The notes beneath the pieces were generated by a model. It did no database searches, had not been told where the DNA came from, and saw only the letters and a program-made list of their open reading frames with translations. Positions 32,438 to 56,798 of a DNA stretch of 64,000 nucleotides are shown here, piece by piece; the first letter of the stretch is position 1; every line of letters starts with the position of its first letter. Both the position numbers and the translations under genes were made by a program. Source of the stretch: Lepidodermella squamata (Eukaryota > Animalia > Gastrotricha); NCBI GenBank assembly GCA_047495785.1, contig JBLDXI010000042.1, positions 2,170,001 to 2,234,000 of the forward strand, written 5' to 3'.

Positions 32438-32543
32438 AGTAGTATTAGTTAGTTCGAGTAAAAAATGCGTAAATTAGTTGGGAATGAAAAGTGAATGAAA
32501 AATCGGTACTTTTTGCAAATTTAGGTTGAAAAATCGGTACATT
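32438..32543 (+). repeat. Polinton left TIR
   Basis: First ~78 nt are identical to the reverse complement of the right end; internal GAAAAATCGG repeats. Confidence 0.95.
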
Positions 32544-32827
32544 TTGAAAATTGTGGATGGAAAATCGATAATTAAGGTGGATTGGAATGAGAATCAATTT
32601 TTTGCAGGAGCTATCACTAATAAAATTATTTCAGATCTGGAACTAGCCGCGGTCAAGTCGAATTGATTATCTCTCAGCAGCAAGTCAAAATAATTGAGGA
32701 AACAACTTTGCGAACACGAAACTTTATTGAATAATTGCAGGTGAATAAAATGAGAACCGATAATTTTTTTTTCAGAATAATTGAGCAAAAAACACAGTAG
32801 ATGAGAAAAGTGTACAGAAGAAAGACA

Positions 32828-35504: not shown

Positions 35505-35597
35505 CAGGGCGCGGCGCACACTTTCAGCACTCGTACAGAATTCCTTACAGATTTCACGCCACTATTCCACCTTAAAGTTCCCATATACTTTCTACCC

Positions 35598-37302: not shown

Positions 37303-40300
37303 ATGGATGAAGAGTTCAAACTACTGCGCTATGAAAAAGTTAGCGAACGCTTTGGCTTATCGACATATGAATTTTTAATCCAGGCCGGTGGTGGTGAATC
37401 TTCCGCCGAAACGGATTCTCTCCAGCAATATGAAAAAATTCAAAACTATTTTGAAAAAATAGTTGATCGGCTTCGATCAAAGTTTGACCCGGATAGCATG
37501 TGCCGGATATCTATTCACAACTCGGAGCTTTCGTATCCGATATCACTGGGCTATTATAGGCTAGCAATTTTATCAGGGGCTATCATAACCAATCATGTGG
37601 AACGAATCGCTCAGTCGAAGCGAGGATTAATTTTTTCATCCACTCCTTTCCGAGTAGAAGCAAACATGGTTTTTCTCGATAAAATGAGGGATGATGAATC
37701 CAAGTATTTAGGATCTGGCCCTGTTAGGCATCGAAAGAAACTCGAGACAAGCGCCTTGAAATGGCTATCAAATCTTAGTTCTTACATCCCTGTTGACAAC
37801 GCAGATAATCTGTGTTTATTTTACGCTGTGGTTTTGGGCATGAGCCACAGCAATTACATAGCATATGTAGCCGATAAAAACAAGAATTTACTTCGATATT
37901 TGGAATCTCCAGAATTGGAGCAAAAAGGACTAGAATATATGCATCTGAAAAATGACAAGGCTAGACTGCGAAAGATGGCTCGGGATCTGTGCCGAAAATC
38001 CGGCTACGACCCCGAATCTAATCGATCATACGGTGTAGCTGACCTTCCTAAAATAATGCAATTTTTTCCGGATCATCAAGTAATAGTTTATTCTCTATCA
38101 GACAATCGGGTCGTATACATGTGGCCTGATAGCAGTGCTTTTTCTGACAAAGATCCGATTCGAGTATACTTGATATGGATCCATCCCAAGTTGATGGCTC
38201 CAATGTACAGCAGGGTTGGGCATTACGGCGCTCTCAAGAATTTGAGTCAAGTAAGCCATGCGAAAACGTACTGTAAACTGTGCTTTGTACCTATATCAAG
38301 ATCAAATCATAATTGCCTATATCGATGTTACGCATGCCATCAGCGATTAAAACCAGCTTTAAGTTCGAATAATGGGATAGTGGATACTCCGAGATGCCTT
38401 AATAGGTGTTCCGATGAGTCAACAATTAGTTGTCAGAACTGCAATCGATTTTTTTTCGGAATTAATTGTCACAATTACCACATCAAAGCTAAGATATGTG
38501 ACAAATTTGTTCGATGCAAATCTTGCGGGCAAATTAAAACTCGAATTAGGATGGCTGAGCACAAATGCTCTGGTCGCAAGTGTGTGGTTTGCAAATCAAA
38601 GCTGGAACCTGGCCATCAATGCTATTGGACAAGGCCAAAGCTTAAGGAATCAGCTGCTCCGAATCGCGTATTATACTTTGACATCGAATGTATGCTCTTG
38701 GATTGTGGGGAATTTCATGCAAGCACCGTTATCGGCGAATTCGCATGCGATGCGTGTTCAGAGCGTGAAATACGCGAATATCCCGCGGACGGAGGTTCAA
38801 TCTGCGAAAATGAGTGCTCTCAGCTATTTTTCTATCACGAATCTGATGCATTCGCGAAATTCATGCGATATATATGCTGCGATCGGTATAAGGATCTGAC
38901 GTGCATTTCTCATTACGGCGGTAAGTGATTAGGCTCAAAAAACGTGAAAAATCTAGGCTGTAATTATTTTAGGCAAATTTGATACGATTTTTGTTCTGCG
39001 CTACGTTCAAGAACAGAATATTAAATTTGAGACTATAGAGAGGGCGGGAAGAATATTGGAGCTAAAAATAGATCGTGGACCCCGGTAAGAGTGCAAATTT
39101 GTAAAAAAAAATAGATTTCAAAAATTGGGAAAAAATAGATTTATTGATAGCTACAACTATTTTTTGACAAAATTGTCCTCTCTCCCGGCCGCTTTCGGCA
39201 TTGACGGCTTGGAAAAACTTAGCTATGCTCATAAACTGCATACCCGCGAAAATTTGTTCAAAGTTTTTCCCGAATGGCCTGGGCTTGAAAAGTACGATAT
39301 CAGCGGCATGTCTGAGAAAGAAATCGCCAGCTTGGAAGATTTCATCAGGCTGAAGAGGCAAAATCGCGAAAGTTACGATTTTAAATCGGAAACTTACCGG
39401 TATTGCCGACAAGATACCGTCATTCTACGAATAGCAACTGGCCGATTCAAGAAAATGATACAGGAATTATCAAAGTGTGATTACGCACCGAATGGTATCA
39501 ATTGCTTCAACTACCTAACACTGTCGTCCATCTCCCATATTATTTATCGAGTAGGTTAAGAAAAAAATGGAGTAATCTACCTTAAAAACATTTCTGGTCA
39601 CCCTAGATTAAGTACATGCTGCCAAATTCAATTCGAATATTCAATCCTCAAGGATTGGTGCTCAGAGACGTCGCAAGTCAAGAAGCTCTGCAATGGCTAT
39701 ATTATTACTCTAAAATTCATAATGTGGAGATTGAATCAGCTTTGAATGGCAGTGAAATTAGGCTGAAAATGTCTGATAAATCTGAGCTCAAAGCTGACGG
39801 GGTAATTCGCAACAAGTCAACAGGGATGGTTGAGCGGGTACTCGAATACTACGGTGAGCTCTGAACATCATTTTCTCAGATAGATTTACGCTTTCGGTTC
39901 TAGGCTGCACCGTTCACGGGCATCCTCGTTGCGTCCCTGAAAATAGGTACAACTTTTTGCTGCGAAAAACGTATGGGGAGCTTGCTTATCAAACGGCTAA
40001 ACGCGAAGAAAAGCTTCGCCAGCATAATTATCAAATCACCTCGATTTACTCTTGCGAGTTTAAGCAAATTCTCGCGAATGACCCAGAACTTGCTTCGACA
40101 TTGCGAGCTGCGGTTTCAATAGTACCGCCGATTAAACCACGGTCAGCGCTATTGGTAAGACTGCTGAAATTGCGATAAATATATCAATAGAAAATAATTT
40201 TAGGGTGGACGAACGGAGGTATTCAGGTGTTATTTTGCTAGAGATTCAGCGACGAGTCTTCAATATGTGGATATAAATTCCATGTATCCATACGTTCTGT

Positions 40301-41785
40301 GTAGCAAACAGTTTCCGTGCAATAACATCTCGGCACAAGTATTAAGGTGGCGATTGAACGACGAAAAACTGAGAGCAAAGTTTTTCGACGAAAATGACCC
40401 AGCATTTGGCCTAGTTTCAGCGAAGTGTTGTCCGAATCCCAGCCTAATCGTGCCATGTTTGCCTTATAAGTCCCCCGATGACGATCGCCTGGTTTTTATC
40501 AGTTGCAGAACATGCTATCTGGAGAAAAACGTGACGACTAGATGCAATCATGACATGGATCAGCGCGCAATTTCCGGAGTTTGGACCAGCGAGGAGCTTC
40601 GCATGGCTGTTGTACAATTCGGTTATAACTTGGTCGAGGTATACGAAATATGGCACTTTCCAGACCGTAGCAACTTGCAATTCAGAGAATTCATTCTCTC
40701 GCTTCAAAAATTGAAGCTTGAAAACACTGTTCTTGCTCCAACAGTTGACGTCGAGCAATACGTCACCGAATGTCGGGAAAGGTACGGAATCGAGCTCGAC
40801 CGGCAAACCATGCTGTCGCCGAATGCTTCGATGAAACAGATTTCCAAGATCCTTCAAAATAGGTAGGTCGATTAAACAATCTTGAAATTAACCCTAATTT
40901 ATCTCTCAGCTTCTACGGTCGCTTTTGCCTACGAGCAAATAATTCCGTGGTGAAATATTTGGACTCGCCAGAACAGTTGATCGAGCTTTTTGAAGCTCCA
41001 AGCAAGGTTATTCACACAATTCAGCCAGTAGGACCAGATGACGAGCACCAAAAAGTCCGCGTTTCATATTCAGACGCTCCAGAATATGAACAGCCATGCG
41101 CTACCAACTCTGAAATTACAGCCTCCTTTATAACTTCTTACGCAAGAATGAAACTTTACGAGGAGGTTCGCAATAATTGGACTAAACGAATTTCAAGCTA
41201 ATTACCTTTGATTTCAGATGGCCAAGCTGGGTTCCAGACTTGTATACTGCGACAGTAAGCAAATTCGCTACCTAAATTTCGTAGAATTTTGATAATCTTG
41301 TATTACGCAGCCGATTCGTTGATTTACACGCACCAAGAGGGTGAATACAAAATTCCAGAGAGTCCATTTCTGGGAGACTTCAAGTCTGAATTGAGCGAGG
41401 GAGAATTCATTGAGTCTTGGGTAGCGATTTCGCCAAAATCCTATTCATTTGTCTCCAACTTGAGGTATAGAATTAATTTTTAGACTTGTTTTTTTTTTAA
41501 TTAATTTCTTTTAGAACTGAACTCAAGTTTAAAGGAATAACCCAAAACTTGGCGGGGAAACGGTTGACTCACGAATCTCTAATTAAGCTGCTAACCGACT
41601 ACCTTAACAATTTTGCTGCTGAAAGTGCGATAACTGTCGATCAGACCGTATTTCGTAGGCGTCACGTTCCAGCATCCGTAACTCTTGAAAATATTGAGAA
41701 AACAGTATCCCCTCACCTTAATGACAAACGAATATTTGATCCTTTGTCATTCACCTCTATCCCTTACGGATATCTTCCTCATTAA
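37303..41785 (+). CDS. pPolB: Protein-primed family B DNA polymerase (TP/vOTU-like N-terminus, Cys-rich region, exonuclease, VSR-like insert); 9 introns
   Basis: After splicing: YFDIE, HYGGKFD, FIDSY, YCRQD, EYYGCTVHG, GGRTE, DINSMYP, KILQNSFYG, YCDTDS, KFKGI. Introns 38921-38972, 39085-39138, 39551-39606, 39854-39903, 40155-40203, 40863-40909, 41166-41217, 41255-41310, 41465-41514. Confidence 0.95.
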
Positions 41786-41829
41786 AATAATAATACGATT
41801 TGATCGCTTTCTCTCGTAGATTTTAGAAA

Positions 41830-42261: not shown

Positions 42262-42421
42262 AAAAAATGCTTGATAATTTAGCGTCAATAATCCAAAGTT
42301 GCTCAACAGTTTGCATGTAAATACATCTCGCATTAACTTCAATAATCCATTAAATTCCAAATATAATATATATTTTTTTAATAATTTTAGAAAATTAAAA
42401 ATTAAAAATTTCCGCCGAATC

Positions 42422-42798: not shown

Positions 42799-42894
42799 GT
42801 GGTGAACGCAGTGACTTATCAATTATTCCCCTCTGTTTATTCACATTAAACAATGTATATAAAATTTTGATTAATCTTAGACGTTACTTTAATC

Positions 42895-43270
42895 ATGGGA
42901 TTCCGAGAACCCTCTTCATTCGAGTCGAGCCCTTCACCAGATGATGATCTCGAGATTGGCTATGCCGCAACGCTAATATGGCGGAATAAGGACCAAATAG
43001 TCATCCATTGCTGCAAGTCGTTTACTGTCGACGACATTATCTGGCAATTGTATCACGAGTGGCCCGAAAGTTGGGGCCTTAAACCGGCGTTGAGTAGCAT
43101 TTACCTGTATCACTGGGGAGTTCCGTTGAAGCGAGAAGCCCGCCCCATAAGTAAGTTGTGCCAAGATGACCTCAAGCCCGTTTCAATATATCTTTTCAGA
43201 ATATTGCGAGTACTATGGCCAAGGCGGTATAGAACTGAAGGTTAAAATCAGTGATGATGACGAGGAGTGA
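42895..43270 (+). CDS. UBL3/MUB-like ubiquitin-fold protein 2
   Basis: TVDDIIWQLYHEWPESWG...IYLYHWG; intron 43151-43199; ends IELKVKISDDDEE. Confidence 0.75.
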
Positions 43271-43660
43271 TTGATCGCATCTCTAGTAAATCGAGTCTCT
43301 AAGAAGGTTTTTTTTTCTTCTAAAAATTAGAGAAATTTAAAACAATATTCAGCGAACATGAGGCTGCGAATTCGAATTGCAGATGGCCTCGAGCCAACTT
43401 TTTGTATCAGAGACATGGGACATTACAAAGCAAGTAATTTTGCGCTAGTTGAAATTTGCATCTCTTAACTGCTTCTTGCAATAGGAGTTAACAATTCGAA
43501 ACTTTCCAGGCTATGCTCGCGTTTCCGTTGGCAACTCGGCGATAGTTAAGATGTATCGCCAATCTGAAACCGTCACCGTTATTTGCATCTATAAGAAGCA
43601 ATAAATCGCCTTAATTGATTTGTATTGTGGACATTTTAGATAAATTTGAGAATATATTTG

Positions 43661-44056
43661 ATGGAAACTCCCCGCCCTTCATCTTCGAGCAGCATCGAGT
43701 CGCACCACTCGGCTGACTCCATGCGGCCTTGTGCTCCACGCGAACGCACTGTTGTTCTACGATGGATAGATGGTAGTGAAATCGTCATGCCATTTAGCAA
43801 ATATTGCACGGTAGCCGATCTCATCTTCATGCTGTATGAAAAATGGCCGGCAGAATGGGGGGAAAGACCGCAGTACAGGAGACTTTTGCTGTGCGATAGT
43901 TACTGCCGAATTCCTAAATTCGCTCGAATGATGGGTAAGTTAATGTTTATTAAATTCCACCGTTAAATGACTGAATTTTATTAACCTTAACTTACAGAGC
44001 TCGACAGACGATCTGGAAGGACGTTCTTGTTATTCGTCAAGCTGACAGCATACTGA
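43661..44056 (+). CDS. UBL3/MUB-like ubiquitin-fold protein 3
   Basis: VVLRWIDGSEIVMPF...TVADLIFMLYEKWPAEWGE; intron 43935-43997; ends TFLLFVKLTAY. Confidence 0.75.
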
Positions 44057-44126
44057 CACGGATTAACTAACTAATAACTGTTTGCATGCATCAGCTAAAT
44101 TTAGGCAGCATTATTACATAGCGAAT

Positions 44127-44438
44127 ATGGATAGTTTGGATTCCCTCAGCTCATCTGACGATTCATGCGTAGCAGACGATTTCAGCGTCCTTTTAACATG
44201 GATGAATGGTGACGAACTCATAATGAGATGCCCTCGAACGGATTCTGTTGATGATTTGCTGTCAAGACTCTATGATGACTGGCCAGTGTATGGATGGGGA
44301 AGACGACCCGCGGATCCTGCCGTGTTAGCGCTGAGCAACGCCAGACAATGCTTACCAAGATCCCAACTGCTTATGAGGGATCACACTGGAGATGCTACGG
44401 GGCATGTCATCTTGAAGTTTTATGTACATTTGAAGTAA
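44127..44438 (+). CDS. UBL3/MUB-like ubiquitin-fold protein 4 (intronless)
   Basis: DSVDDLLSRLYDDWPVYGWG...DPAVLAL. Confidence 0.7.
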   Translation: MDSLDSLSSSDDSCVADDFSVLLTWMNGDELIMRCPRTDSVDDLLSRLYDDWPVYGWGRRPADPAVLALSNARQCLPRSQLLMRDHTGDATGHVILKFYVHLK

Positions 44439-44612
44439 TTCTCGCAATAGCTTGTATTATCGCCTCAGTATACCTTGTATATCAATCTATAACCTCATTA
44501 TAAATAGGAATGTAAACTGTTTTTTAGAGTGATTAGCTTTGTATGTAAAATTGATCCCAACGGCAAATTTAGGCGAGTAATTTAAGGCTTTATATAGCAT
44601 CAAAAGAGCAAA

Positions 44613-44837
44613 ATGGATTGGGGTAGCTCATCATCTGATGATTCAAGCATAGCCGACGATTTCTGCGTTCTTTTAATCTGGGAGAATGGCAACACACTAA
44701 CAACGAGGTGCCCTCGAACGGATTCTGTCGATGATTTACTGTCAAGACTGTACTCTCGGGGTGCGATCTTGGAGCTGCCGGGTTCTGGGGGACCGACTTT
44801 GCTTGCTGTATTTATTAAAAGGATTAGAACTAATTAA
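44613..44837 (+). CDS. Internally deleted duplicate of UBL-like protein 4
   Basis: Shares RCPRTDSVDDLLSRLY and flanking DNA with copy 4; the WPxxW segment is missing. Confidence 0.6.
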   Translation: MDWGSSSSDDSSIADDFCVLLIWENGNTLTTRCPRTDSVDDLLSRLYSRGAILELPGSGGPTLLAVFIKRIRTN

Positions 44838-45065
44838 CCTCATTAAATACGAATGTAAATTTTGTGATTTTTTAGAATGATTAACATGTCATGTAAAATT
44901 GATTTCAACTCCGCCATGCATCCGAATTTTGCGTGGGCGCTAGTTCGAGGTTCGAAGGTGGGACGCGATTTCAAGCCTCGGGTGACACTACATTGCCCTA
45001 TATATTTTCAGCCATTTGACCTTCTTCGAGCCACTAGCAGCAGCAGGTCCAGTGTGTCCCAGTCG

Positions 45066-45816
45066 ATGATGAAAGTGATGTGCATCTCTGACACTCATAA
45101 CGAAGACATCGTACCACTTGTTAGCAAGCTTCAGCGATCATCGCAAGCCGACATTTTGATCCATGCTGGAGATGCGACCACGTTCGGTAGTCTTGACGAA
45201 GTGAGAAATTTTGATTCTCAGCTTGCGAAATTGAGACCGCTGTTTCACCAAGTAATTGTAATCGCTGGAAACCACGATCGCTCCTTACAATACGACCGCA
45301 ATTTACTGCGCGATAATTGCACCTACTTGCAGGATAGCTCTGTAAAAGTGAATGGCTTTCTTTTCTACGGCGCTCCATGGTAATTTATAAGGCAATAATC
45401 ATCGGCTTTGACGTGTGTGCAAAACAGGACACCACTCAGCGAGAGCTGCCATTCTGCTTTTACGCTCAACAGAGGCAACGAACTCGGTGAAAAGTGGGCA
45501 TTGATACCCGCTGAGACGGACGTTTTGGTAACACATTGTCCACCGTTAGGTGCTCTGGATCAAACGTCAACAGGTGATCACCTGGGATGTCTCTCACTAG
45601 CTTATCATGTCTTGGGTCGGATTCAACCACAACTCCATGTTTTCGGCCATTGCCACTACAGTAAGATATATCAAAACAACACACGAATCATATTACATAT
45701 TTATTTCAGGTAACGGAGAAATGCAAAGTGAATATACGCACTTTGTGAATGCGAGCATTTGCGATGATAACAACAGGCTTCAATTCATGCCGAGGCTGGT
45801 CGATCTCTACCATTAG
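45066..45816 (+). CDS. MPPED1/2 (239FB)-like metallophosphoesterase; start may lie upstream (44877)
   Basis: CISDTH, HAGD, IAGNHD, VLVTHCPP, HVFGHCH, FVNASIC; introns 45380-45427 and 45661-45709. Confidence 0.9.
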
Positions 45817-46781
45817 TCGACCTTTGGAACCCACGATGACCAATTCCCGCCAGTCTGCTTGGCAATGTGCTCTTTATTCTGCTCACCCGCCGCCGCCTGC
45901 TCTTCCTTACTACGTAGCGAACGTGGTGATGCCGCTACCCGCGGATTAGTCGCGTTCAACGCTCCTGCTCTGACCATGTTTCGAATACGGTCTTGCATTC
46001 TCGGACTCAGATTAGCGTTCTTGTTAGTTGCCTTGTCGAGAAATTCTACCAACTCCCATGAATCTATCAATTGTCCTTCCGAGTTGACGTATTCGATTTT
46101 ATTTGCAGGCGAAATATAGACTGATTTTGGCTTTGAACTCCCGCGCAAGTGATTCAAAATTCGAGCTGCAGCAGATTGTTGTGTTTTACTCGGGAAATTT
46201 TCGAGGATCCTGCCGTCCGTCAAGTTTACAAGACTGATTTTATCTTTCGGCTTCGCCTTCTGATCAACTATGTCCTCATTGTCGTTTTGTTGCTCGTCTT
46301 GGCTAAACTGCTCTATTTTTGGCGAAGTAGTATTACCAATCACCCTGCGCTTGGGAGTGCCGTTGGGCGAAGTCCTGTATTTCTTCGCTAATTTTCGCAA
46401 GATTCCGGGCGTTGGTGCAGGGCTTTCGTCCTCCTGCTCTTCCGCCTCTTCATCTGCCTCCTGCTGCTGCTGCTCCTTTTCCTCGGCTTTACCTTCAAGG
46501 ATTTTCAATTCCTTTACGACTCGTTGAAACTCTCGAAACGCTGAGTTGAATTTGTACAGCTTTTCGCGGGCATCTTCGTCGCTGCCTTCAGATAACGATG
46601 TCAGCAGCTGAGTCGCGTTACGTTTAAGATGACCTTTTTGCGCAGGTTGAGAGGCTTCCTTTATCAACCGCTTGCTCTCTGCCTCGAGTGCTGATGGGGC
46701 TTCCGTTTTATTAGCTTCACTAGAAGATCCAAGCACAAGAGCGTAACGCTTCGCATGCAGACCAATGTCTGTCGATTTCAT
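45813..46781 (-). CDS. Polinton protein of unknown function, possibly virion-associated
   Basis: 322-aa ORF at the end of the structural gene block; C-terminal QTGGNW. Confidence 0.7.
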   Translation of the reverse strand: MKSTDIGLHAKRYALVLGSSSEANKTEAPSALEAESKRLIKEASQPAQKGHLKRNATQLLTSLSEGSDEDAREKLYKFNSAFREFQRVVKELKILEGKAEEKEQQQQEADEEAEEQEDESPAPTPGILRKLAKKYRTSPNGTPKRRVIGNTTSPKIEQFSQDEQQNDNEDIVDQKAKPKDKISLVNLTDGRILENFPSKTQQSAAARILNHLRGSSKPKSVYISPANKIEYVNSEGQLIDSWELVEFLDKATNKNANLSPRMQDRIRNMVRAGALNATNPRVAASPRSLRSKEEQAAAGEQNKEHIAKQTGGNWSSWVPKVD

Positions 46782-47197
46782 GGTTTTCGGGTTGCCTTAA
46801 CAATAGCTTCAACGATTGTAGGGAGTATGCCTATAACAATCCTGCAGATAAACTTCATAGTCGAATTTGAAAAACGCATACCTGCTGCAGCAGATAATAG
46901 CGGAACAACGAACGCAGCGCCGCCTTTTTGAACTATGAATGTTCGGTTACCACTGATTGTTCTGTCACTACTACTCAGTTTTTTGATAGATTTCCTAAAT
47001 TTACGCAGCTTTGGTGCCAAATTATCCGGAATCTGTAGATTTTTGTTGATAAGATTCAGGCAGATTTCACTGATAATTCTGATCACGGAATCAGGAGCTA
47101 TCGATAATAGCTGTCGTCTTCTGTCGGCTGTTTTTGCTTTATGAATTTCCCTTAAAAAGCCCAGTACTCGATCAGATTTATTCAATGGCTTACTCAT
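46778..47197 (-). CDS. Basic core protein with adenovirus pX-like QKGG-hydrophobic tail
   Basis: QKGGAAFVVPLLSAAAG|ILPTIVEAI; probable in-frame intron 46831-46881. Confidence 0.7.
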   Translation of the reverse strand: MSKPLNKSDRVLGFLREIHKAKTADRRRQLLSIAPDSVIRIISEICLNLINKNLQIPDNLAPKLRKFRKSIKKLSSSDRTISGNRTFIVQKGGAAFVVPLLSAAAGMRFSNSTMKFICRIVIGILPTIVEAIVKATRKP

Positions 47198-47262
47198 GCT
47201 TAATAGACATGCTACCAATAATTTAAGAAAAAAGTCCGTTTCATCTCATTTAAATATACATT

Positions 47263-47999
47263 TTATTTAGGAACATAAATGACACCAGGGTTACTTCCTA
47301 CCCCGGTTCTGTAACGCATATATTCAGGACAGTTAGGACTCAGATCTATTAACAAATAATTGTGACTGCCTTTGCTAGTTTCCATTTCAAAGCTCTCAAC
47401 TAAAAAGCGCCATCGCAACGGTTCCAGCTGCAGAGCAAGGTAGCGAAATGCTGTGAGGTCCGCTCGATGCCGAAAAATGAACAAGTATTTCGCATTTAGG
47501 GTCATTTCTTTGGAAACTTTTCCCTTACTGAATATGGCTTGTTGGGTGAAAAACACTGACAAGTTCATGTGATGAGAGTATCGATAGAATAACTGTAAAA
47601 TCTTGGGATCGTTTCGACCCGTATCATATAGATCATCTATGAGAAGTAAGGTGTGTTTGTCTTCACTATTCTCGAATTCTTCAAAATTGAGTTGTTCCAA
47701 TCCTTTCCGAAAGTCGATACTTACTCCACGAATCCTCTCAACTTCGTCTTTGATTTGCTGATGCATCTTAGTTTCGACGCCGTAAAACCATACGATTCTT
47801 TGCGGCGGCGGAGAGATGGACTCGAGATCGCACAGAATGCTCCGAATAAGCCATGTTTTACCTGAAAAGTACCTTCTAAATACTAACTATTCAACTTGCT
47901 ATATATCATACCTGCTCCGCTGGGACCTATTACAAGAGAGCAGAATGGAGCTTGCAGACTCAGCGAAAAGTCAGTCTCTGATGGCAAATTGCTTGACAT
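47263..47999 (-). CDS. A32/FtsK-like DNA packaging ATPase
   Basis: Walker A GPSGAGKT is restored by intron 47862-47911; Walker B LLLIDD; SHHMNLSVFFTQQ. Confidence 0.93.
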
Positions 48000-48535
48000 G
48001 ATTGGCGACCGTCACACGTGGATAATTTGTGCGCGGCCTTGCTTAGCTTAAATAGCTTTTTCACTTGGTCTACTACAAACTTGTCAGTCTCTGGCGGCAT
48101 CGGCAGCATCCGCGTAATGCTATTAATTGTTGCGCCCCGCGATAGCCAATGCAAACTCCAATATGCATAGTACCCACAAACAGCTGATGTATCCCCCTGA
48201 TATTTTCTCCCGTTAAAAGCATAGTAATCTGCCCCATTTATTTCCTTTAAAAACTGCTCAATATCTTGATTGTAGAAAAAACCCCGTTGGCCGTAGCTGT
48301 CAAATAGTGTTGCGGGTTCATTATTTTGTGGAACGTATATAGATAGCCAGTGGCGCCCAGGCTGGCCTGCAGCGTCCGTATTTACAATCAAGGCCATCGG
48401 CCGATCACTCAGTCTTCGATATTCAGCTAGGAAATCCCACGGAATTGTCTTTTTAACTGCAAGTTTACTTATTATCTTGTCACAGGCTAATAGGCAGTCA
48501 AGTTGGAGCGTGTTAAGTTGCTCTGCGGCATCCAT
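47960..48535 (-). CDS. Adenain-like cysteine protease
   Basis: GRHW, FDSYG, QGDTSAVCGYY (His-Asp-Cys triad). Confidence 0.93.
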   Translation of the reverse strand: MDAAEQLNTLQLDCLLACDKIISKLAVKKTIPWDFLAEYRRLSDRPMALIVNTDAAGQPGRHWLSIYVPQNNEPATLFDSYGQRGFFYNQDIEQFLKEINGADYYAFNGRKYQGDTSAVCGYYAYWSLHWLSRGATINSITRMLPMPPETDKFVVDQVKKLFKLSKAAHKLSTCDGRQSCQAICHQRLTFR

Positions 48536-48538
48536 TTG

Positions 48539-49828
48539 TTACGTAAAGTCGACCAAGACGTTCCTTGCAAAGTTTAGCTCAATGACTTGGTCAGTTTCAA
48601 AGTAGCAAAGCAATATAAGATTGTCCTCTAATGCCGATTTAAATAATAGGTCTATATTAAGGACCCCAGTTTTCACCAAACTATATGCACTTCGACTCGA
48701 ATCGGGTGAAAGGTCAAACCCGATGAACGAAAACCCATCTTTCGAATACTCGGATAGCGTGATACCATTGGTCTTGGCTGAATATGGGAACAGCGTCTCT
48801 CTTAGCGCGTTTAACGCTCGAGCCGATTTATTACTACCATCTCCGATATCAAGCGGACTGTTGGGTACATGCTCGCTGTCTATCATTACTGAGACGCGCT
48901 GCAACCCGGCGTTTTTGAAATCATATGGGCTGGTGCTAAAATCACCCTTAAAGTCCTTATCGCTCACAAAACACATCACTAATCGTCTTGGAATTTTCCC
49001 GATAAGAACATGTCCCAAATTATAATTTAGCGATCCCTTTTGCAAGTTCAATATCTTGATAAAAGATCTATTAACGCCGTATTTAGCAGTAGTTTTCGTT
49101 AGGGTTCGGTTTAACGCCAAAGTGAATTGCGGGGACACTCGGACACGACGTAATTTCAGCTTGGCATCGGTCACAGTCAACGTGAATTTCTCTTCATCTG
49201 TACTTGCCTTCATTAGCACAAATGCATCGGAAGCCCTAACAAACGTTAGCTTGAAAGGCGTTGCCGGTATCAGGAATTTCGGTTGGGAAAATAGTTCTAA
49301 ATGCGGCCGACCTATTAGCACCATTTCACCTTCCTTTGCCCACGCCAACCGCTTAACGTGACCTTTGCCTGCGACGTCGCTCACCTTGCTCGCTTCGTCG
49401 GCAAAGTAGCCTTGAAGTGCTAGGTAGCTATCCTTAACAGCATGGTCATAGCTTAGAAGTGTTGAAATGTAAGCTTTGTAGTTGTAAGTTGGAGCTGGTT
49501 CGCTTATTTGTGTGTTATTGATACTCATGTCTATCTGACTGAACATGCTATGTAATAGCAGGTTGACTGGTGCGCACGTGATCGCCGTTTTTGCCTTGGC
49601 CGGGTCCGTGTTTACGACTTTACAGGTAATTTCAACATACGATCGGCTCAGGTCTGTCCAGTCGTTGCTCGGTGGAACGTCAAAATCAATCCTTGACTGA
49701 TTAGCTATAGCTGAAACTGGTCCATATTCTGTAATGTAGTTACTCTCAATCTCTACTTGCGTAGGGTTCAGCGAAAAAACGTTGAGCTCAGCGCGAATAG
49801 CGTTTTCAGAAGATGGGTGTACGTACAT
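48539..49828 (-). CDS. Major capsid protein (double jelly-roll)
   Basis: HPSS..ELNVF..PTQ N-terminus, PVNLLLHSMFSQ, YNYKAYI, IPRRLV, FDLSPD; 429 aa. Confidence 0.92.
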   Translation of the reverse strand: MYVHPSSENAIRAELNVFSLNPTQVEIESNYITEYGPVSAIANQSRIDFDVPPSNDWTDLSRSYVEITCKVVNTDPAKAKTAITCAPVNLLLHSMFSQIDMSINNTQISEPAPTYNYKAYISTLLSYDHAVKDSYLALQGYFADEASKVSDVAGKGHVKRLAWAKEGEMVLIGRPHLELFSQPKFLIPATPFKLTFVRASDAFVLMKASTDEEKFTLTVTDAKLKLRRVRVSPQFTLALNRTLTKTTAKYGVNRSFIKILNLQKGSLNYNLGHVLIGKIPRRLVMCFVSDKDFKGDFSTSPYDFKNAGLQRVSVMIDSEHVPNSPLDIGDGSNKSARALNALRETLFPYSAKTNGITLSEYSKDGFSFIGFDLSPDSSRSAYSLVKTGVLNIDLLFKSALEDNLILLCYFETDQVIELNFARNVLVDFT

Positions 49829-49875
49829 GATTACTATTTACTATACATCTCATTCGACGCCTTTAAATACAGTTT

Positions 49876-50347
49876 TCAGAAGTAGACACGTTTCCCAGCC
49901 TTCTTTTTACCGACTGCTTTGCTTTTACGCTTAGCAATGACGCGGCGGCCCCGGCGGCGCCTGCGTCTTCCAGTCCCAATTTGCGATCCTACATTTGCAA
50001 TGACATCCTTGGCTACTCCCTTTAATCCTTCCACAGCTCTCCGCTTCAGTATCGTTTTCGGACTGGCGTCCTTATTTTCCAACAAATCGCTTGCGATATT
50101 AGCCGTCGTGTGACTCAGATTTCGGAATATTGGTCCCAGCAATGGAATAATATGATTACGAAAAAATCCGGCGGCTACACTTCCGAATCCGTTTCCTGTC
50201 TATAATAAACTATGCCTAATCAATCTAATATTTATCACTTGATGTTACCTGATAAGTAGGGAATACGAGTGATTGACCACGAAACGGTTCTATCCCGTAC
50301 CCACTTTGTTGCAACAAAAACGATTCATAAGCATCTGCTGAATGCAT
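49876..50347 (-). CDS. Core/membrane-active precursor with QxGxG sites and an Arg/Lys-rich tail
   Basis: QSGYG, Q|TGNG (intron 50200-50248), amphipathic FGSVAAGFFRNHIIPLL, QIGTGRRRRRR. Confidence 0.75.
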
Positions 50348-50353
50348 GCTTCT

Positions 50354-52043
50354 TTATTTAGCTATAGGTCTAATTTGCACAAGTATTACTGCTTTACCGC
50401 TAACAAATTTCACTGGCAAGCCAGAGTCTTTAAATATCTGAATCTCTATTACGGATAACACGCGGCGTTTAATCGGAACAAATATTGGCTTTTCAAACAT
50501 TATGGAGAAAAATCCGCCTCTTTCATTAGTTTTTTCTGTTGGTATCACTCGCAGAAGTGGGGTGCGCGTGTTTCCCACGTACACGTCATCAATTACATCA
50601 GCGTACAAAAACAAGAAGGGCATTCCATAGTCCAACTGAGGCGCGAATTTCGCTGTCATTTTCTCTTTGACATCATGATAAGTGTAGGTGTATTCTACTG
50701 TTGATATGACTTGCTGCTCTTTCGAGTCTGATTGCGGTTTAGCTGAAGCACTGATGCCGTTGTTGTTCGCAGGTACGTTCTCGTCAGGGACTTCGTCCGA
50801 GGCCGCGTTCTGAGCTTCGCTGCTGGAGCTCGTAGTGCTGGGCGCTGGTACGTTCTCATCAGGCTCGCTATTGTTCCCGGGGACGTCGTTCGAGGCTGCG
50901 TTCTGAGCTTCTGCGGGGTTGTTGGGTGTGACTTCGCCCTGAGCTTCGTTGTTGGAGATTGCGGGAGGATCGGTGTTGGAAGCAGGTACGTTCTCGTCAG
51001 GGACGTTGTCCGAGGCCGCGTTCTGAGCATCGCTGCTGGAGCTTGCGGGAGGCTCTTTCTTGGCTTCGACAGCGTTCTGAGCATCGCTGCTGGAGCTTGC
51101 GGGAGTCTCGCTGTTGTTCGCGGCTGCACTATTGCTCGGCTCTTCGGTTTCTTCCGCTACATCTTCATGCTGATCGATATCCACGTTGTCCTCGGCATTT
51201 TCCGCCTCGGATCCCCCCCATTCATCGTCTCCGAATTGAACCGGTTCATTGCGTTTCGCTATCTTACGAGGTGGTTGCTCTTCTGTTGGAGCCGATCGCC
51301 GGATCCTACTAGTCTTTGCTACCTCCTCCTGCATGAATAATTGACCAGTGACTTTAAGCTTGTTGTCATTTATTGATGACAATGCCATGCGATATGGTAT
51401 TTTCTGGCGGTTTCCTCGAATAACATATCCCAGCATGTGCATGAACGCTTCGGCTTTCTCCCTATGTTTCCGCTGGTTTTTCATGTTCTTTGCGCCGTAC
51501 TCGTTGAATGCTATGAAGGCTTCTGGGAATCCAAGGACTTGAGCTAATTCTTTCGGTATGAATATGCCCCAACGTCCTTGTTCCACCTTTACGGATACCC
51601 GATTTGCTATTTTCGTATAGTCAAATGATATAGCTTTGGTTATCGGCTTGATTTCTGTCACCATGTGCTCCAACAACTCCTCGATGCTAGAGTAGTAGAC
51701 GCCACCAACTTGGCACTCGTGCATTTGCAACGCGTCAAATGGATCCGCCAAGTTTACTTCAGTATTGTGCACCCAGTCACTGTCAAAGATATAATATTTT
51801 GTTGGTTCCAGTGATTCCCACGCTGCCGGTCCGTTAAATTCAACCAGCCCCATTTCCCATTGACCTACGTACGTACGCGTTCTCTTAACAGTTTGGTTTA
51901 TTTCTTTTTGAATACTTACCTACTGTACCTAGATCAATCTCATTAGCTAATTTCACGCGATACGAAGACGGCGTGTTATCAGGAAATAGATCATTCGATG
52001 CGTTCGACGGCAAATAGAGCAGAAATTCTTGCTGTGCGCTCAT
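50354..52043 (-). CDS. Minor capsid (penton) with a long acidic low-complexity insertion
   Basis: LYLPSNAS..FPDNT..GQWEMGLVE (intron 51865-51919); C-terminal YADVI..VGNTRTPLLRVI..PVKFVSG. Confidence 0.88.
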
Positions 52044-52306
52044 TTCGTATTATTAGCAATTGTCAAGGCTATGCAATTGATCAGTCGATCGTTCCAAGAT
52101 CGTGCGACTTCCACAGTGCAGTACGTGATAATTATTGCGAACAAGGATAATACGCCGATGCTCTTCTTCTTACTCTTAAGTGTCGCTGCTAATCTGCTAC
52201 TGACAGAGCTGCTATGTGGACTACTTGTCCTTTTAAATAAGCTTGAGTCTACTTGATCTTCCCCTGCAGATGGCATGCGACATGGCAGTGATGTTGTAGC
52301 ACGCAT
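52040..52306 (-). CDS. Small single-pass membrane protein
   Basis: KSKKK followed by SIGVLSLFAIIITYCTVEV. Packed between neighbouring genes, with an ATGA overlap. Confidence 0.6.
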   Translation of the reverse strand: MRATTSLPCRMPSAGEDQVDSSLFKRTSSPHSSSVSSRLAATLKSKKKSIGVLSLFAIIITYCTVEVARSWNDRLINCIALTIANNTK

Positions 52307-52384
52307 TTATCGGCGACGACGTCTGTGGTATCGTTTGCGTGCTGTGTGTCTTCGCTTTCGGATTGCTCGTCTAGGTCCTGGCAT
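52307..52384 (-). CDS. 25-aa protamine-like Arg-rich peptide
   Basis: MPGPRRAIRKRRHTARKRYHRRRRR; fills the gap between the integrase stop and the next ATG. Confidence 0.7.
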   Translation of the reverse strand: MPGPRRAIRKRRHTARKRYHRRRRR

Positions 52385-52385
52385 T

Positions 52386-53627
52386 TTATTTCCGCTTCCG
52401 CTTCGATTTTTGCGCCTTTAAATATTCATTTTCTACGGCTTTGATTTCTCCGATCGGTTCCCACGAGCTCTGCGATTTAGGAAACCCTACCCAACTGACC
52501 AGCACTCTAGTTGTTCCGTCCTTGAACTTTCTCTTTTCCTTACCAACTTCGGCTATCAGGTACTCTTCAGGAAGCTTGACCTTTTGAAGCTCGTAACTAT
52601 AAAAAACTCCGGCCAGCGGCTCTGTGTAGTCTCCCTTCTCCTTATTCCACTCATTGAGCTTATAAGTGTAGGGACCGAATTTGTCTGGCTTAATTATCCT
52701 CGAAATTTTAAAGTATTCGTCCGTGTATACAAAGTGGCGGGCTCGATCGAATACCCCCCTTTCAGCTGATATCCGAACTACATCTCCGACCTGGAATTTC
52801 GCCTTTGAATTTCTCTCTTTTTTATGTTCATCAACAGGACCGTATATATTTTCATAAGCTTGAAATTGCTTCAGGCTGTCCTCGTATATGTCCAGATTGA
52901 GGTCTTTGTCGCTTTCAATTTTCCTACCGGTTTCTTTGTCATTATACAGCTCCGCCGGTGTAAATTTCGTTGAAGAGTGAATGCTCTGATTATAGACTCG
53001 GACAATATCCTGCAAGTCATCTACGTATCTTCTATCATTCCGTGCTATCGCTAGTTTCGCAAGTCTCATGCGAAGCAATTTGTTGAACGACTCAATCTGA
53101 GGAACCTTCTTCTCTGAATTAGTTGCAAAATAATGTATTGATTCTGATTTCAGATATTGCTCTACATGCTTGTTGAAAAATTCTGATCCTCTGTCAAATA
53201 CGACAGCTGACGGTTTTTGCTTGGCATCTCTCAAGACTAATTTCAGTGCTCTTAACGTTTCTAGACCAGTCTTATTGAGCATCGGCTGCACCCAGGCGAA
53301 TCGGCTATATGTATCCTTTGCTGTCAACAAGTATTGAACGTTATCGTTCTCGCCTTTGACGTTTTTCACATCCAGCAAGTCCATGGCGAACATACTTCTT
53401 CTACTGAAACAAGCTACCTTACGCATTAGCCGATTCCGCGTTCCAACTTGCTTGTACACGCTCCATGCTCGCTGGTTCCCGAGCCACTCTCGCACTTCCT
53501 TGAAAGAAATCCTACGATTTGGATACTTGGCCTTATACGAGTTGTACAGCGATGATATACTGCCGAGACTCCCCTTCTCCGCTGGTGTAAAATATATTTT
53601 CCTGAGACCTTCATCCGTAGCCGACAT
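52386..53627 (-). CDS. Retroviral-like (rve) integrase with C-terminal chromodomain
   Basis: DDE in FAMDL / VFDRGSEF / IESFN; VSWVGFPKSQSSWEP. Confidence 0.95.
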   Translation of the reverse strand: MSATDEGLRKIYFTPAEKGSLGSISSLYNSYKAKYPNRRISFKEVREWLGNQRAWSVYKQVGTRNRLMRKVACFSRRSMFAMDLLDVKNVKGENDNVQYLLTAKDTYSRFAWVQPMLNKTGLETLRALKLVLRDAKQKPSAVVFDRGSEFFNKHVEQYLKSESIHYFATNSEKKVPQIESFNKLLRMRLAKLAIARNDRRYVDDLQDIVRVYNQSIHSSTKFTPAELYNDKETGRKIESDKDLNLDIYEDSLKQFQAYENIYGPVDEHKKERNSKAKFQVGDVVRISAERGVFDRARHFVYTDEYFKISRIIKPDKFGPYTYKLNEWNKEKGDYTEPLAGVFYSYELQKVKLPEEYLIAEVGKEKRKFKDGTTRVLVSWVGFPKSQSSWEPIGEIKAVENEYLKAQKSKRKRK

Positions 53628-53671
53628 TCTCGATCTATATTATTACATTTCCAAGCGTTTTAAATATAGGA

Positions 53672-54600
53672 ATGGAAAATTATTCATACATCCGATTAGT
53701 TGGATCTGGATCATTTGGAAGTGTAAGCTTACAGCGACACGTTAAACTTAACCGAATCTTTGCTGTGAAAATGATAAATACCACGCATCCTGTATTTCTT
53801 GAATCTGCACATCGCGAAGTCCAGTCTCTCCAATTGCTCAAAAATGCTCCGAACGTCGTTAAGTAATGATTACATAACAATCCGTTGCATTTAATGCTCA
53901 TTTTTCGCACAGATTACACGAGGTACTATATACGTCAAGACGGGCTTTTCTCGTCTTGGAATGCCATCTTATGGATTTGAGAAAGCTGATAGAACTCCTG
54001 TCTCGACCTTGGCCGCTCACACTACTCGAACGATGGTTCAGTCAGCTATTGTCCGCTCTGGATTACATCCATGAGAAAGGCATCATTCATCGCGATGTCT
54101 GCCCACAGGTTTGCTTTTCCCACGGATGCGTGTACCCAACTACCTTTCTTCTACAGAATGTTCTACTTCAATCCAGCTGGGTCGATGTTTCCCTCGGAGA
54201 TTTCGGCATCTCTCGATTAGTACCTGACCATGATACCTGCCCCAACATGACAGGGACTGTTACCGTTTTTCGCTATCGGGCGATTGAAATCATGTTCCCA
54301 AAACCTTACTACACTAACAAGATTGATATTTGGTCACTAGCTGCTACTATCATTGAGCTCGTCACTCTCACTCCTTTTTTTAACGCTCGAACCCCTGTAA
54401 CCATGTTAGCTGATATGAAATCTAAAACTTCTAGTCGCGATGTTTTCTTTAGGTCGTTAGAGACATTTGTGCATTGCGATTTTTCTGAATATCGTCATCT
54501 GCTAACTACGCTGTACTCGATGTTTGATAACGACCCGATCTACCGTCCAACTGCTAGCACCTGTTTATATCGCACTTCTCTTCGAACCTGGTATTATTGA
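53672..54600 (+). CDS. CDK-like (CMGC) Ser/Thr kinase
   Basis: MENY..GSGSFG, AVK, SAHREV, HRDVCPQN, DFG, YRAIE, DIWS; introns 53863-53912 and 54109-54156. Confidence 0.9.
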
Positions 54601-55236
54601 ATGCAAACTTTCGACATCAATGTTTCAGTTTCAAACGTTGTCGCTACTTTCCACGCTGGATGCACTATTGATTTAAAGCATCTGGCTAATCACGGAGTTA
54701 ACACATATCATGATAGCAGAAAAATCCCTGTTTCAACTAAGATTCGATTTCCCTCTGGTGCCACTGCAATGGTTTACAGCAGCGGTAATGTTATTGTCAT
54801 CGGCGGCAGGGGATCGCGAAATGTTCCAGAGTTCGAGTCTCAGGCGTTCCTAATCATGCTAAAGCTAAAAAAGTGGATGTCATCGTCTGAAATATCTTTC
54901 AATAATTTCAAGATACAAAATATTGTCATCACCGGACAGTTACCCTTCCGGTTTTCAAACATTTCATCGCTTTACTCTAGTCTCTCATCACTGCCAGGAC
55001 TACGAGTAGTTTACATACCAGAATCATTCTGCGCTATGCGAATCACTTTGAACAATAAGAAGATAAGCTTCTTCCCGAGTTCTCACAAGTTTAACATTCT
55101 CGGCGTTGATAGCATAGATCAAGGATTATCTATTATTCAGTCCTTTGCTCAGCTGTGTATCAACATCTACGAGAAGGATCTATCAGACCTTACCCTGACC
55201 AAAGAAGATCTGGATTTTCTATTTGGCAATATTTGA
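54601..55236 (+). CDS. Divergent TATA-binding protein (TBP/TRF2 family)
   Basis: Two TBP repeats: NVVATF..C.IDL..TAMVYSSGNVIVIG and FKIQNIV..YIPESF..ISFF. Confidence 0.9.
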   Translation: MQTFDINVSVSNVVATFHAGCTIDLKHLANHGVNTYHDSRKIPVSTKIRFPSGATAMVYSSGNVIVIGGRGSRNVPEFESQAFLIMLKLKKWMSSSEISFNNFKIQNIVITGQLPFRFSNISSLYSSLSSLPGLRVVYIPESFCAMRITLNNKKISFFPSSHKFNILGVDSIDQGLSIIQSFAQLCINIYEKDLSDLTLTKEDLDFLFGNI

Positions 55237-55290
55237 GTTGGTACAAATAAAAAATCGACCCTCCGCTGATCACCCGTGTTTTATTTTTCT

Positions 55291-55395
55291 AATGTTCCGA
55301 TTTTCAACCTAAATTTTCAAAAAGTACCGATTTTTCATTCACTTTTCATTCCCAACTAATTTACGCATTTTTTACTCGAACTAACTAATACTACT
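55291..55395 (-). repeat. Polinton right TIR
   Basis: Reverse complement of 32438-32543; ends in ACTACT. Confidence 0.95.
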
Positions 55396-56798
55396 CCCGC
55401 ATTCATTCTTTCCATTTCAAGCAGCGACAAAAATCCACGTATCACATGGGCAATTTTGGACAGTTTGATCACAAGTGTTTGAACATGCACCGGCTAATTT
55501 AAGGTGGTAGCGATATAATAAATACTTACGTCTTAAGCTGTTCAGCGAATTTCAACGCCTACGGTGTATATTTTACGTTTTACGCCCATGCTTTTATTTT
55601 GACAGAACTTGAACAAAGTTACAATTTTCCAGACACACAGACAATTTCAAGACAGACAAACTATTTATCGACTCGTCGTATAAGACTAAAACAGTCGTGA
55701 GGATCCATACTGTCGGTGGTGACTCATGGCGGCTTAGAATAATGAGGTTGTTATTCTTGAACCAAGCCTATTGACCTATTTCCCGAGTTCCTGCGAGTAA
55801 ACTTTGGCAGCTAATCGTCAAACAGGCAATGGTGATTATGATCTCCGAATTCTTACTTCTGCTCATCTACTTTTACCAGCCCCGGCTCAACGTCAATGCT
55901 TTGAGCTGGGTTTGCCAGCTTTAACGGCAACGGTGGTCGAGCAATATGAAATACAAGCTGAGCAGCCAAAGACAATTTCGGATTTTCGATTTTTTTTCTT
56001 TCGAAGAAAGTTTTTTCCTGTGTCAATTTCATCGATGACGATTATTGGATCCCCTAGGTGTTCTTACTTTTCTAGAGGATTTTTGAATTTTCAAAATTCA
56101 GACTTCCAGGAGGTTTCCATCCACCTCAAAAGATAGGAGACCCTGAAGTTAGGTTGACGTGGTAGCACTAGCTTGATTCCATAGAAAAAATTTAAAATCT
56201 GACAAGATTCCTCACCTCAGATTACCTAAAAGAAAATCTGACTGCGCATATAAGAAGATAACATCGGAAATTAGTGGGCGAAGAACTGTCAATTGATTGC
56301 ATTAAACCGAATTTTTTCGGCGCGCATTTTTCGAAATTAGCAATTTTTAGCCGTAAACTTTGAAGTCCATTTTCTCAGCAACCCTGATGACTATCAACTT
56401 CCTTTAGATATCTTTCGACTCCTCATTCATTGATCTTGAAAGCTGCATCAAAATCTCGCAATGTCAAAAGTTTCGCCAAACCCAATTTTTCACTTAACGG
56501 TCATACTGATAGAAAAATTCTTCTTCAATTATTTTGCAGGAAAAATCAAACGATTCAAATCGAAAAATACCTGCAGAAGTGACAAATTTATTGACTCTTC
56601 GTTCACGTAAGAAGATTCTACTTTTACTTGTCAACTTCAGACTGAAACTCGCTGAAACTTGACAACCCTTAGCTTGCTTTTTTACTTTTCAAGTAATTCA
56701 ACTGCGAAACTGCGATATGAATTTTATTCAGCGAAAAATGAGCAATTCACACATCTCATCTTAAAATTAGAAATAAAGTACATATCTGCAAACATTTC

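Follow-up and report, generated by a model that had tools for sequence, protein, structure and literature searches.

The window analysed here, a 64,000-nt stretch of a Lepidodermella squamata contig, contains a Polinton/Maverick-type element of 22,958 nt (~23 kb; 32438-55395). The element is bounded by terminal inverted repeats of about 112 nt, one at 32438..32550 on the plus strand, which begins AGTAGT, and one at 55285..55395 on the minus strand, which terminates ACTACT (113 nt of the left end align with 111 nt of the right end). The available text of PMC10748475 gives 100-1500 bp for the terminal inverted repeats of Polintons/Mavericks and 13-25 kb for their length, and both values of the element lie within these ranges. 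Position 55395 is also where a contig of run X1 departs from the sequence and where run X2 has the end of a collapsed contig. The hallmark rve integrase (Pfam rve match above cut-off), packaging ATPase, protease, and major and minor capsid genes of the group are all present. No 5-8 bp target-site duplication was seen when the two flanks of the element were compared; the flanks differ, and therefore the element was assigned to the Polinton type by its genes and ends and not as a clean single insertion; copies may have recombined, or the assembly may contain a join here.

On the plus strand, a putative gene for a protein-primed family B DNA polymerase (PolB, 37303..41785) consists of many short pieces with motifs read by eye. 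One piece matched Pfam DNA_pol_B_2 (PF03175) at E 5e-4, which is under the cut-off, a rule-based search of 37303..41785 gave no open splice path, and tblastn with the PolB ORFs of relatives as queries gave no match. A CMGC-like (MAPK/CDK-like) protein kinase gene with two likely introns (53672..54600, plus strand) lies head to head with the integrase gene, and an intronless gene for a divergent TBP-fold protein of 211 aa (54601..55236, plus strand) adjoins the right inverted repeat.

Nine minus-strand genes inside the element form a 7.9-kb virion/integrase block. These are the integrase of 413 aa with rve and chromodomain (52386..53627; Pfam rve E 9e-8, Chromo E 4e-5), an Arg-rich protamine-like ORF of 25 aa, a predicted core peptide named from its translation and without homology support (52307..52384), the minor capsid (penton) gene with a long acidic insert (50354..52043; tblastn against the L001 homolog E 1e-9, N-terminal piece E 0.006), a QxGxG basic protein gene (49876..50347; weak tblastn against the L001 homolog, E 0.02), the major capsid protein (MCP) gene (48539..49828; 35 homologs), an adenain-type maturation protease gene (47960..48535; tblastn against the L001 homolog E 3e-15), a packaging ATPase gene (47263..47999; tblastn E 7e-25), a pX-like basic protein gene named from its position and by eye, with no search match (46778..47210), and a last gene of 322 aa (45813..46781). 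The MCP is predicted to form a double jelly-roll (model pLDDT 81.8; Foldseek against mavirus MCP E 2e-15). Short introns of 43-55 nt are predicted in four of the block genes: 51919-51865 in the penton gene (by frame arithmetic), 50248-50200 in the QxGxG gene, 47911-47862 in the ATPase gene, where it interrupts Walker A, and 47193-47151 in the pX-like gene if this starts at 47210, the other candidate start being 47197. AATAAA signals overlap the stops of the integrase, penton and ATPase genes. Run X1, whose RNA nature is a guess, was not counted as expression evidence: it contains joints between opposite strands, and none of the 15 joints listed (of 18) is a splice joint.

The original prediction had reported seven copies of TATTTAAA and one of TATTTAAG upstream of the genes of this block, and all eight were recovered exactly as claimed, on the minus (coding) strand. 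Between 45801 and 53700, TATTTAAA occurs seven times on the coding strand versus zero on the other, and it is the most frequent 8-mer of the block (runner-up 4). Enrichment against shuffled sequence, a check named in advance, was clear: among 1000 shuffles of 45801-53700 for each of four orders (2-, 3-, 4- or 5-mers preserved), the mean coding-strand count of TATTTAAA was 0.26-1.12 depending on the order, and seven copies were reached in 0/1000 at every order. When the post-hoc choice of the word was allowed for, any 8-mer reached seven copies in 3/200 of the 3-mer shuffles and 2/200 of the 4-mer shuffles. Enrichment over the whole window was not clear (11 copies on both strands versus 6.27 +/- 2.53 expected; 6/100 shuffles reach 11), and the signal is local and stranded, not window-wide. 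Moreover, the coding strand holds no TATWWAWR octamer besides these eight words, and the block has no ordinary TATAAA.

Measured from the first T of the word, the box at the head of the block (53659..53666), which has no same-strand gene upstream, is 39 nt from the integrase ATG; 52417..52424, within the integrase 3' end, is 40 nt from the ATG of the Arg-rich peptide; 52232..52239 is 196 nt from the minor capsid ATG with no intervening ATG; 50429..50436, within the minor capsid 3' end, where it encodes I-F-K, is 89 nt from the QxGxG gene; 49862..49869 is 41 nt from the MCP ATG; 48638..48645, within the MCP 3' end, is 110 nt from the protease ATG; the TATTTAAG box at 48047..48054, within the protease 3' end, is 55 nt from the ATPase ATG; and 47249..47256, directly past the ATPase stop and AATAAA, is 46 nt from the first ATG of the pX-like gene. 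The spacing of about 30-190 nt noted earlier agrees with these values (three boxes sit 89-196 nt from the ATG), as does the frequent position inside the preceding ORF, seen at four sites. "Nearly every" structural gene holds for eight of the nine block genes; the ninth (45813-46781) has no box within 200 nt. The flanking identities were also present, TATTTAAAGGCG at 52424 and 49869 and ATGAGATG at 47256 (overlapping the box word) and 49869; no shared initiator was found in bases 25-38 downstream of the boxes. The first ATG at least 27 nt past the box is the gene start at 8/8 sites (at one of them through a predicted intron) and at 6/6 when the Arg peptide and pX-like genes, whose starts are the least secure, are set aside, compared with 900 of 7887 block positions (11.4%) in the control.

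Rather than promoters, the boxes might be sites for 3'-end formation, packaging or protein binding, or might arise as a by-product of the coding sequence, since seven of them are close to the 3' end of the gene before, and a Phe conserved at the MCP site in 61/62 relatives supplies part of the word. This reading is very unlikely in our view: the first box follows no same-strand gene, the last block gene has a box at neither end, separate AATAAA signals stand at three stops, the word is embedded in two different reading frames with four copies outside long ORFs, and relatives have canonical TATA boxes at the same places. In 55 clusters of distant Polintons (MCP ~30% identical; mostly fragments, 24/55 reaching 5 kb), TATAAA was present within 110 nt before the ATPase gene in 9/11, the pX-like gene in 7/16, the QxGxG gene in 10/40 and the PC4-like gene in 3/6, and within 250 nt before the MCP gene in 31/47. 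TATTTAAA never occurred before the same genes in these clusters, and none of the 24 relatives of at least 5 kb holds more than two copies. In 9/51 relatives, TATAAA lies 2 nt upstream of the position that corresponds to the penton-site box, and 0/51 have the F and K which this box encodes. Strand, position, the first-ATG result and the replacement of the canonical TATAAA of relatives thus give good support to the promoter interpretation, and, judged from sequence, the eight TATTTAA(A/G) words very probably have a promoter role for the block genes.

Box conservation in sister elements was seen weakly and at one site only, the pX-like box. A diverged sister contig of run X2 (depth 179.4; aligned at 80% likeness) matches a 23-nt island at 47245-47267 that covers this box and AATAAA and is shorter than the 30-nt side of the reliability warning; a piece of the same contig at 48541-48733 covers the protease box. 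Among the pieces listed, no diverged sister piece lies over the TBP gene, which bears neither way. The best tblastn match for TBP in the distant Polinton clusters had E 0.41, and this missing TBP is weak evidence because of the low MCP identity and fragmentary state of these relatives. Viral contigs yielded no close relative of MCP, TBP or integrase, and a word search gave no TBP homolog of comparable length.

On the coding strand of the plus-strand block (35401-45812), TATTTAA occurs 0 times and TATAWA 12 times. Some plus-strand genes (PolB, PC4-like, RING, kinase, TBP) have TATATAA/TATAAA-type words, and TATATAAA lies 39 nt before ORF 42895. TATAWA is unstranded in this block (12 sense versus 13 antisense), so the use of canonical TATA by early genes rests on few sites.

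Virophages and giant viruses are known to share late-promoter motifs, and TAAAT is the poxvirus late core. With this motif sharing as precedent, the boxes might serve the transcription machinery of a helper virus, as in virophages and some polinton-like viruses, and TAAAT is indeed contained in box sites, but in just two of the eight and both times far from the ATG. Moreover, the element supplies its own TBP-fold gene, and the predicted spliceosomal introns of four block genes point to nuclear Pol II; we regard a helper-virus role as most improbable.

The element TBP-fold gene, proposed earlier as a plausible source of the reader, is real by the agreement of Pfam (TBP E 5.5e-14), the predicted model (pLDDT 90.9) and Foldseek (against 1vok, Arabidopsis TBP, E 1e-13, TM 0.72), and the model and Foldseek predict the two-repeat saddle fold (PF00352). 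The protein is 24-40% identical to its best 150 matches and forms a long branch with no supported group in a quick-method tree. It retains both Asn (N12, N107), V14, V109, F143, F157/158 and E141. In yeast numbering, the positions of F99, F116, T124, T215, V213, P191 and E186 are occupied by I42, Y59, I67, L167, N165, C144 and I139, respectively. The intercalating Phe positions are I42, Y59, F143 and F157/158 (the last alignment-dependent); one intercalating Phe is apparently lost, a change that would fit weak binding or use as a decoy, and the modelled DNA-reading face is predicted to be altered.

According to the available text of two yeast studies, transcription from TATTTAAA by purified yeast factors reaches >75% of wild type and T at position 4 of the TATA element is tolerated only with T at position 5 (PMC2396422), and TATTTAAA is a natural promoter word of ADE5,7 and ADE6 (PMC4457894). 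The strictness of the box requires no new reader because ordinary TBP can use TATTTAAA, and since yeast TBP also uses it well (PMC2396422), we only somewhat favour the element's own TBP-fold protein as the reader of the boxes. Host TBP/TFIID may read them instead, with TATTTAAA as the TATA variant of the lineage (or the one preferred by the host) and the element TBP as a decoy titrating TFIIB or Mot1, or serving other promoters. The efficient transcription from TATTTAAA by yeast TBP in the accessible text (PMC2396422), the TATA boxes already present before the same genes in distant Polintons without a detected TBP, and the degenerate DNA face of the element TBP are consistent with this possibility, which we consider rather doubtful: eight concerted changes and the loss of all canonical TATA octamers are hard to explain with a reader accepting both words, four of the changed sites are inside coding sequence, one at the cost of unusual residues, and there is no sign of a host-wide shift outside the element (TATTTAAA 4 versus TATAAAW 24 in 41,042 nt, both strands).

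We lean, with modest confidence, towards TATTTAA(A/G) as TATA-type core promoters preferentially read by the element TBP, in a herpesvirus-like early-to-late switch, and we infer that the box promoters act late. Transcription would begin with the plus-strand genes (PolB, PC4-like, RING, kinase, TBP), carried out by host Pol II; the element TBP would then occupy TATTTAAA, with transcripts beginning ~25-32 nt downstream. Block transcripts would be capped, spliced at the 43-55 nt introns and terminated at AATAAA signals, and the products would be short nested mRNAs in which the first AUG is that of the next gene. For the wider proposal, that a Polinton lineage evolved a one-protein late switch by capturing a TBP, rebuilding its DNA face and co-evolving a private TATTTAAA box that, even within coding sequence, replaced the host TATA at every virion gene and converged on the TATT word for which herpesviruses use a complex of six proteins, we hold the chances to be evenly balanced.

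The literature searched (main texts, few of them from subscription journals) describes neither the way in which Polinton capsid genes are transcribed nor a timed programme of Polintons, and no paper on a Polinton TBP-promoter pair was found there. A private TBP-box pair, if true, would mean that an animal Polinton has a regulated late phase, and would be a minimal natural example of altered TBP specificity, open to test with a single small protein and a site of 8 bp. In addition, the canonical TATAAA before the ATPase and capsid genes of ordinary Polintons is a usable promoter map for annotation of the group.

The element resembles Polintons/Mavericks/adintoviruses, as described in the available text of PMC8502044, PMC10748475 and bioRxiv 10.1101/2022.07.12.499685, in size, inverted ends, a putative PolB, rve integrase, ATPase, protease, and major and minor capsid genes. 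Unlike Polintons, it has TBP and kinase genes, a TATTTAAA box replacing TATAAA and no target-site duplication at this copy; and unlike nematode Mavericks, whose core genes are called intronless in the available text among these three sources, its core genes have predicted introns. The same text of the three sources has 0 occurrences of the word "promoter", and that of PMC8502044 has a "TBP" label in a figure legend for midsize DNA viruses. With cellular TBP (PF00352), the element TBP shares the predicted saddle fold and both central Asn, and the same 8-mer is a TATA element in yeast (PMC2396422, PMC4457894, available text), whereas the element protein differs in several DNA-facing residues and in one acidic TFIIB-stirrup residue.

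The late promoters of beta/gamma-herpesviruses are alike in their word, as TATTWAA fits 8/8 element words, and in having structural genes as targets (PMC6541308, available text); their reader is a virus-encoded TBP fold, as the reader proposed from sequence for the element would be. In the accessible text on KSHV, late promoters have TATTTAA ~29-32 nt before the start and require the viral TBP mimic ORF24 (PMC6541308, PMC12529657), and ORF52, ORF8 and ORF17.5 have TATTTAAAG 29 nt before the start (PMC6541308). Late, replication-dependent expression from a start ~30 nt past the box is a further mark of the herpesvirus system. Herpesvirus ORF24 carries additional domains that bind Pol II and DNA, and it has five partner proteins (PMC12529657, available text), whereas the element TBP is a bare 211-aa core readily alignable to cellular TBP, and no herpes Pfam families were found among the 25 ORFs scanned. 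The element is not a member of the herpesvirus TATT/vPIC system and may work alike; its resemblance to herpesvirus late promoters would be convergent.

Seven minus-strand copies of the TATA-like octamer TATTTAAA had been placed by the original prediction upstream of structural genes, and all were located where it put them: 53659-53666 (integrase), 52417-52424 (Arg-rich peptide), 52232-52239 (penton, the minor capsid protein), 50429-50436 (QxGxG protein), 49862-49869 (major capsid protein, MCP), 48638-48645 (protease) and 47249-47256 (pX-like gene); the single TATTTAAG at 48047-48054 (ATPase) was likewise borne out. Within the block of minus-strand virion and integrase genes (45801-53700), TATTTAAA occurred seven times on the coding strand and never on the opposite strand; apart from these seven and the one TATTTAAG, the coding strand had no TATWWAWR octamer. 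Enrichment against shuffled sequence, the check proposed with the prediction, came out in its favour: with 2- to 5-mers preserved, mean counts of TATTTAAA were 0.26-1.12 and a count of seven was matched by 0/1000 shuffles at each order, and an arbitrary 8-mer attained seven in 3/200 and 2/200 shuffles. Across the whole window on both strands, the excess was marginal (11 vs 6.27 expected; 11 reached in 6/100 shuffles), and DNA outside the element held 4 copies in 41,042 nt, with no excess in flanking host DNA. The observation thus stands on the local stranding and the shuffle outcomes, and the pattern in the block is real and strongly non-random.

At 8/8 boxes, the first ATG found 27 nt or more past the first T was a gene start, compared with 900 of 7887 control positions in the block (11.4%); the distances from first T to ATG, in order from the integrase box to the pX-like box, were 39, 40, 196, 89, 41, 110, 55 and 46 nt. 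Two starts were our own calls, that of the Arg peptide having no homolog evidence and that of the pX-like gene depending on a predicted intron (if there is none, the gene would begin at its second ATG), and omitting both gave 6/6. A role as 3' signals was disfavoured by the geometry, since the first box, at the head of the block, has no preceding gene on its strand and the final gene (322 aa) has no box. Together with the first-ATG match and with AATAAA overlapping the stops of integrase, penton and ATPase, this indicates that the boxes fit 5' signals. Judged from the sequence, the boxes are very probably the core promoter of the virion module of a Polinton-type element.

The minus-strand block of this element comprises, in order, an integrase with chromodomain, a 25-aa Arg-rich ORF, the minor capsid protein, the QxGxG basic protein, the MCP (predicted fold matching mavirus MCP, E 2e-15), the protease, the packaging ATPase, the pX-like gene and the 322-aa gene, and the plus strand carries PC4-like, fragmented-looking PolB, RING, ubiquitin-like, metallophosphoesterase, kinase and TBP genes. 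Many spliceosomal introns of 43-55 nt are predicted (37303-54600) in PolB, ATPase, penton, QxGxG, pX-like and kinase genes, with none in MCP, protease, integrase and TBP. Four block genes can be read through only with such a GT-AG intron, with TTTCAG-like acceptors and fitting phases that leave the terminal stop as the sole stop; one predicted intron splits the ATPase Walker A. Acceptor type and intron length would be in keeping with a nematode host. The core genes thereby appear intron-bearing, whereas those of nematode Mavericks are described as intronless in the available text of 10.1101/2022.07.12.499685. The minor capsid gene contains a long, acidic, repeat-rich insert (50680-51230, minus), possibly a projecting spike or stalk. 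On the plus strand, a RING gene (41830-42261) adjoins a series of related short ORFs (42422-44837), two with weak ubiquitin/SUMO-like Pfam matches (E about 0.003). Near the left end lies GC-rich cargo (32828-34778, minus) with two related acidic ORFs, one carrying 39-nt tandem repeats, and the stretch 34830-34946 has an inverted copy (76-81%) outside the element at 56343-56457.

The element spans 32438-55395 (22,958 nt), with inverted ends of about 112 nt beginning AGTAGT. A contig of sequencing run X1 parts from the window sequence exactly at 55395, with a different flank beyond, which marks where the element stops and suggests an insertion elsewhere. The window copy lacks a target-site duplication; the 9 nt outside each end (32429-32437, 55396-55404) form an imperfect inverted pair differing solely by G/A changes. 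In run X2, depth was about 180-220 on element contigs, 362 on a collapsed repeat and 49 at the junction to the window flank (55285-55450); although depth is no copy number, these values and the X1 flank hint that the element is present in several near-identical copies or exists in a free form. Diverged sister families, several in number, are also present in run X2; the match readable in them was a single 23-nt island spanning the pX-like box, weakly suggesting conservation of the box. Elsewhere in the window, a host gene or gene pair is present in five tandem copies (8980-30660; two ORFs tested had no Pfam match), a 23-nt tandem array lies near 17260-17465, and a trypsin-domain host gene is preceded, at 59405-60429, by a perfect inverted repeat of 459 nt around a 107-nt spacer, probably a foldback or MITE-type element of recent origin.

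Among 492 candidate stretches of metagenome contigs, a profile built from 13 MCP homologs identified 347 relatives, and the best 80 of these plus one viral contig gave 55 clusters; they are distant and mostly partial (MCP identity 31% in locus L001). Where the seed match reached the gene start with sufficient upstream DNA, TATAAA lay within 110 nt of the start in 9/11 ATPase, 7/16 pX-like, 10/40 QxGxG, 11/50 MCP (31/47 within 250 nt), 5/43 protease, 4/23 integrase, 3/30 penton and 3/6 PC4-like genes, and TATTTAAA lay within 110 nt before none of these gene classes in the 55 clusters. For the ATPase, 8/9 TATAAA boxes in loci L001-L081 were 35-53 nt from the ATG. Over 270,666 nt of relatives, TATTTAAA was unstranded (9 vs 8) and TATAAA stranded (232 vs 83), and TATTTAAA never exceeded two copies per relative (24 relatives of at least 5 kb). 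At the penton 3' end, TATAAA sits 2 nt upstream of the spot homologous to the box in 9/51 relatives, and the box-encoded F and K occur in 0/51; at the MCP site, the box-encoded F is kept in 61/62 relatives regardless, with TATAAA eight codons further on in 5/62. Ordinary Polintons carry canonical TATAAA before the ATPase and often before pX-like, QxGxG and MCP genes too. The block shows the inverse pattern, so the box word stands in for an ordinary TATA box and has spread to nearly every gene.

A candidate reader is encoded by the element itself, as an intact TBP ORF (54601-55236, plus; Pfam TBP E 5.5e-14) on the inner side of the right repeat. Its model is a TBP saddle (pLDDT 90.9) matching Arabidopsis TBP (E 1e-13, TM 0.72); identity to the best 150 sequence matches was 24-40%, and the tree gave no resolved placement. 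In the homolog alignment, N12, V14, N107, V109, E141, F143 and F157/158 are retained, and I42, Y59, I67, L167, N165, C144 and I139 replace the F, F, T, T, V, P and E of most homologs. The changed residues are predicted to lie on the face reading the middle of the box, which would be compatible with altered specificity but also with weak binding. The 81 related loci, which are incomplete, yielded no TBP gene (best E 0.41). Directly before the TBP gene, its stop abutting the TBP start, lies a MAPK/CDK-like kinase (53672-54600, plus) whose catalytic loop is HRDVC instead of the usual HRDLK; the kinase may act as a cofactor of transcription or else be a pseudokinase. In the plus-strand block, TATTTAA is absent from the coding strand, a few canonical-looking words precede genes, and TATAWA is unstranded (12 vs 13). 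Between cargo and PolB side, a near-palindrome at 35098-35125 (TATTTATA plus strand, TATAAATA minus strand) is a possible bidirectional early promoter.

Host TBP could also read the boxes, since in the available text of PMC2396422 purified yeast factors transcribe TATTTAAA at >75% of wild type (TATTAAAA, <20%), and yeast ADE genes are driven by TATTTAAA according to the portion seen of PMC4457894. However, eight sites, four within coding sequence, were swapped in concert in an element carrying a TBP gene, and the flanking host DNA shows no matching excess; on these grounds the element TBP is slightly favoured as the main reader.

The literature searched contained no description of a TBP-box pair in Polintons, and no general promoter map of Polinton TATAAA boxes was found in print. 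In the accessible part of PMC8502044, 'TBP' is named in the legend of a figure dealing with midsize DNA viruses and the word 'promoter' is absent; TBP, TATA and promoter go unmentioned in the available main text of PMC10748475 and 10.1101/2022.07.12.499685. The case for a private TBP reader of the virion-module promoter is good but unproven. In the late promoter of beta- and gamma-herpesviruses, the TBP mimic ORF24, acting with five partners, recognises TATTWAA located about 30 nt upstream of the start (PMC12529657, PMC6541308, as far as available), and TATTTAAAG is present in KSHV ORF52, ORF8 and ORF17.5 (same portion of PMC6541308). The element encodes a bare TBP core instead, and the 25 ORFs scanned gave no Pfam match to herpes families, so it does not belong to that system; its box and TBP would nevertheless work like the beta/gamma-herpesvirus late promoter.
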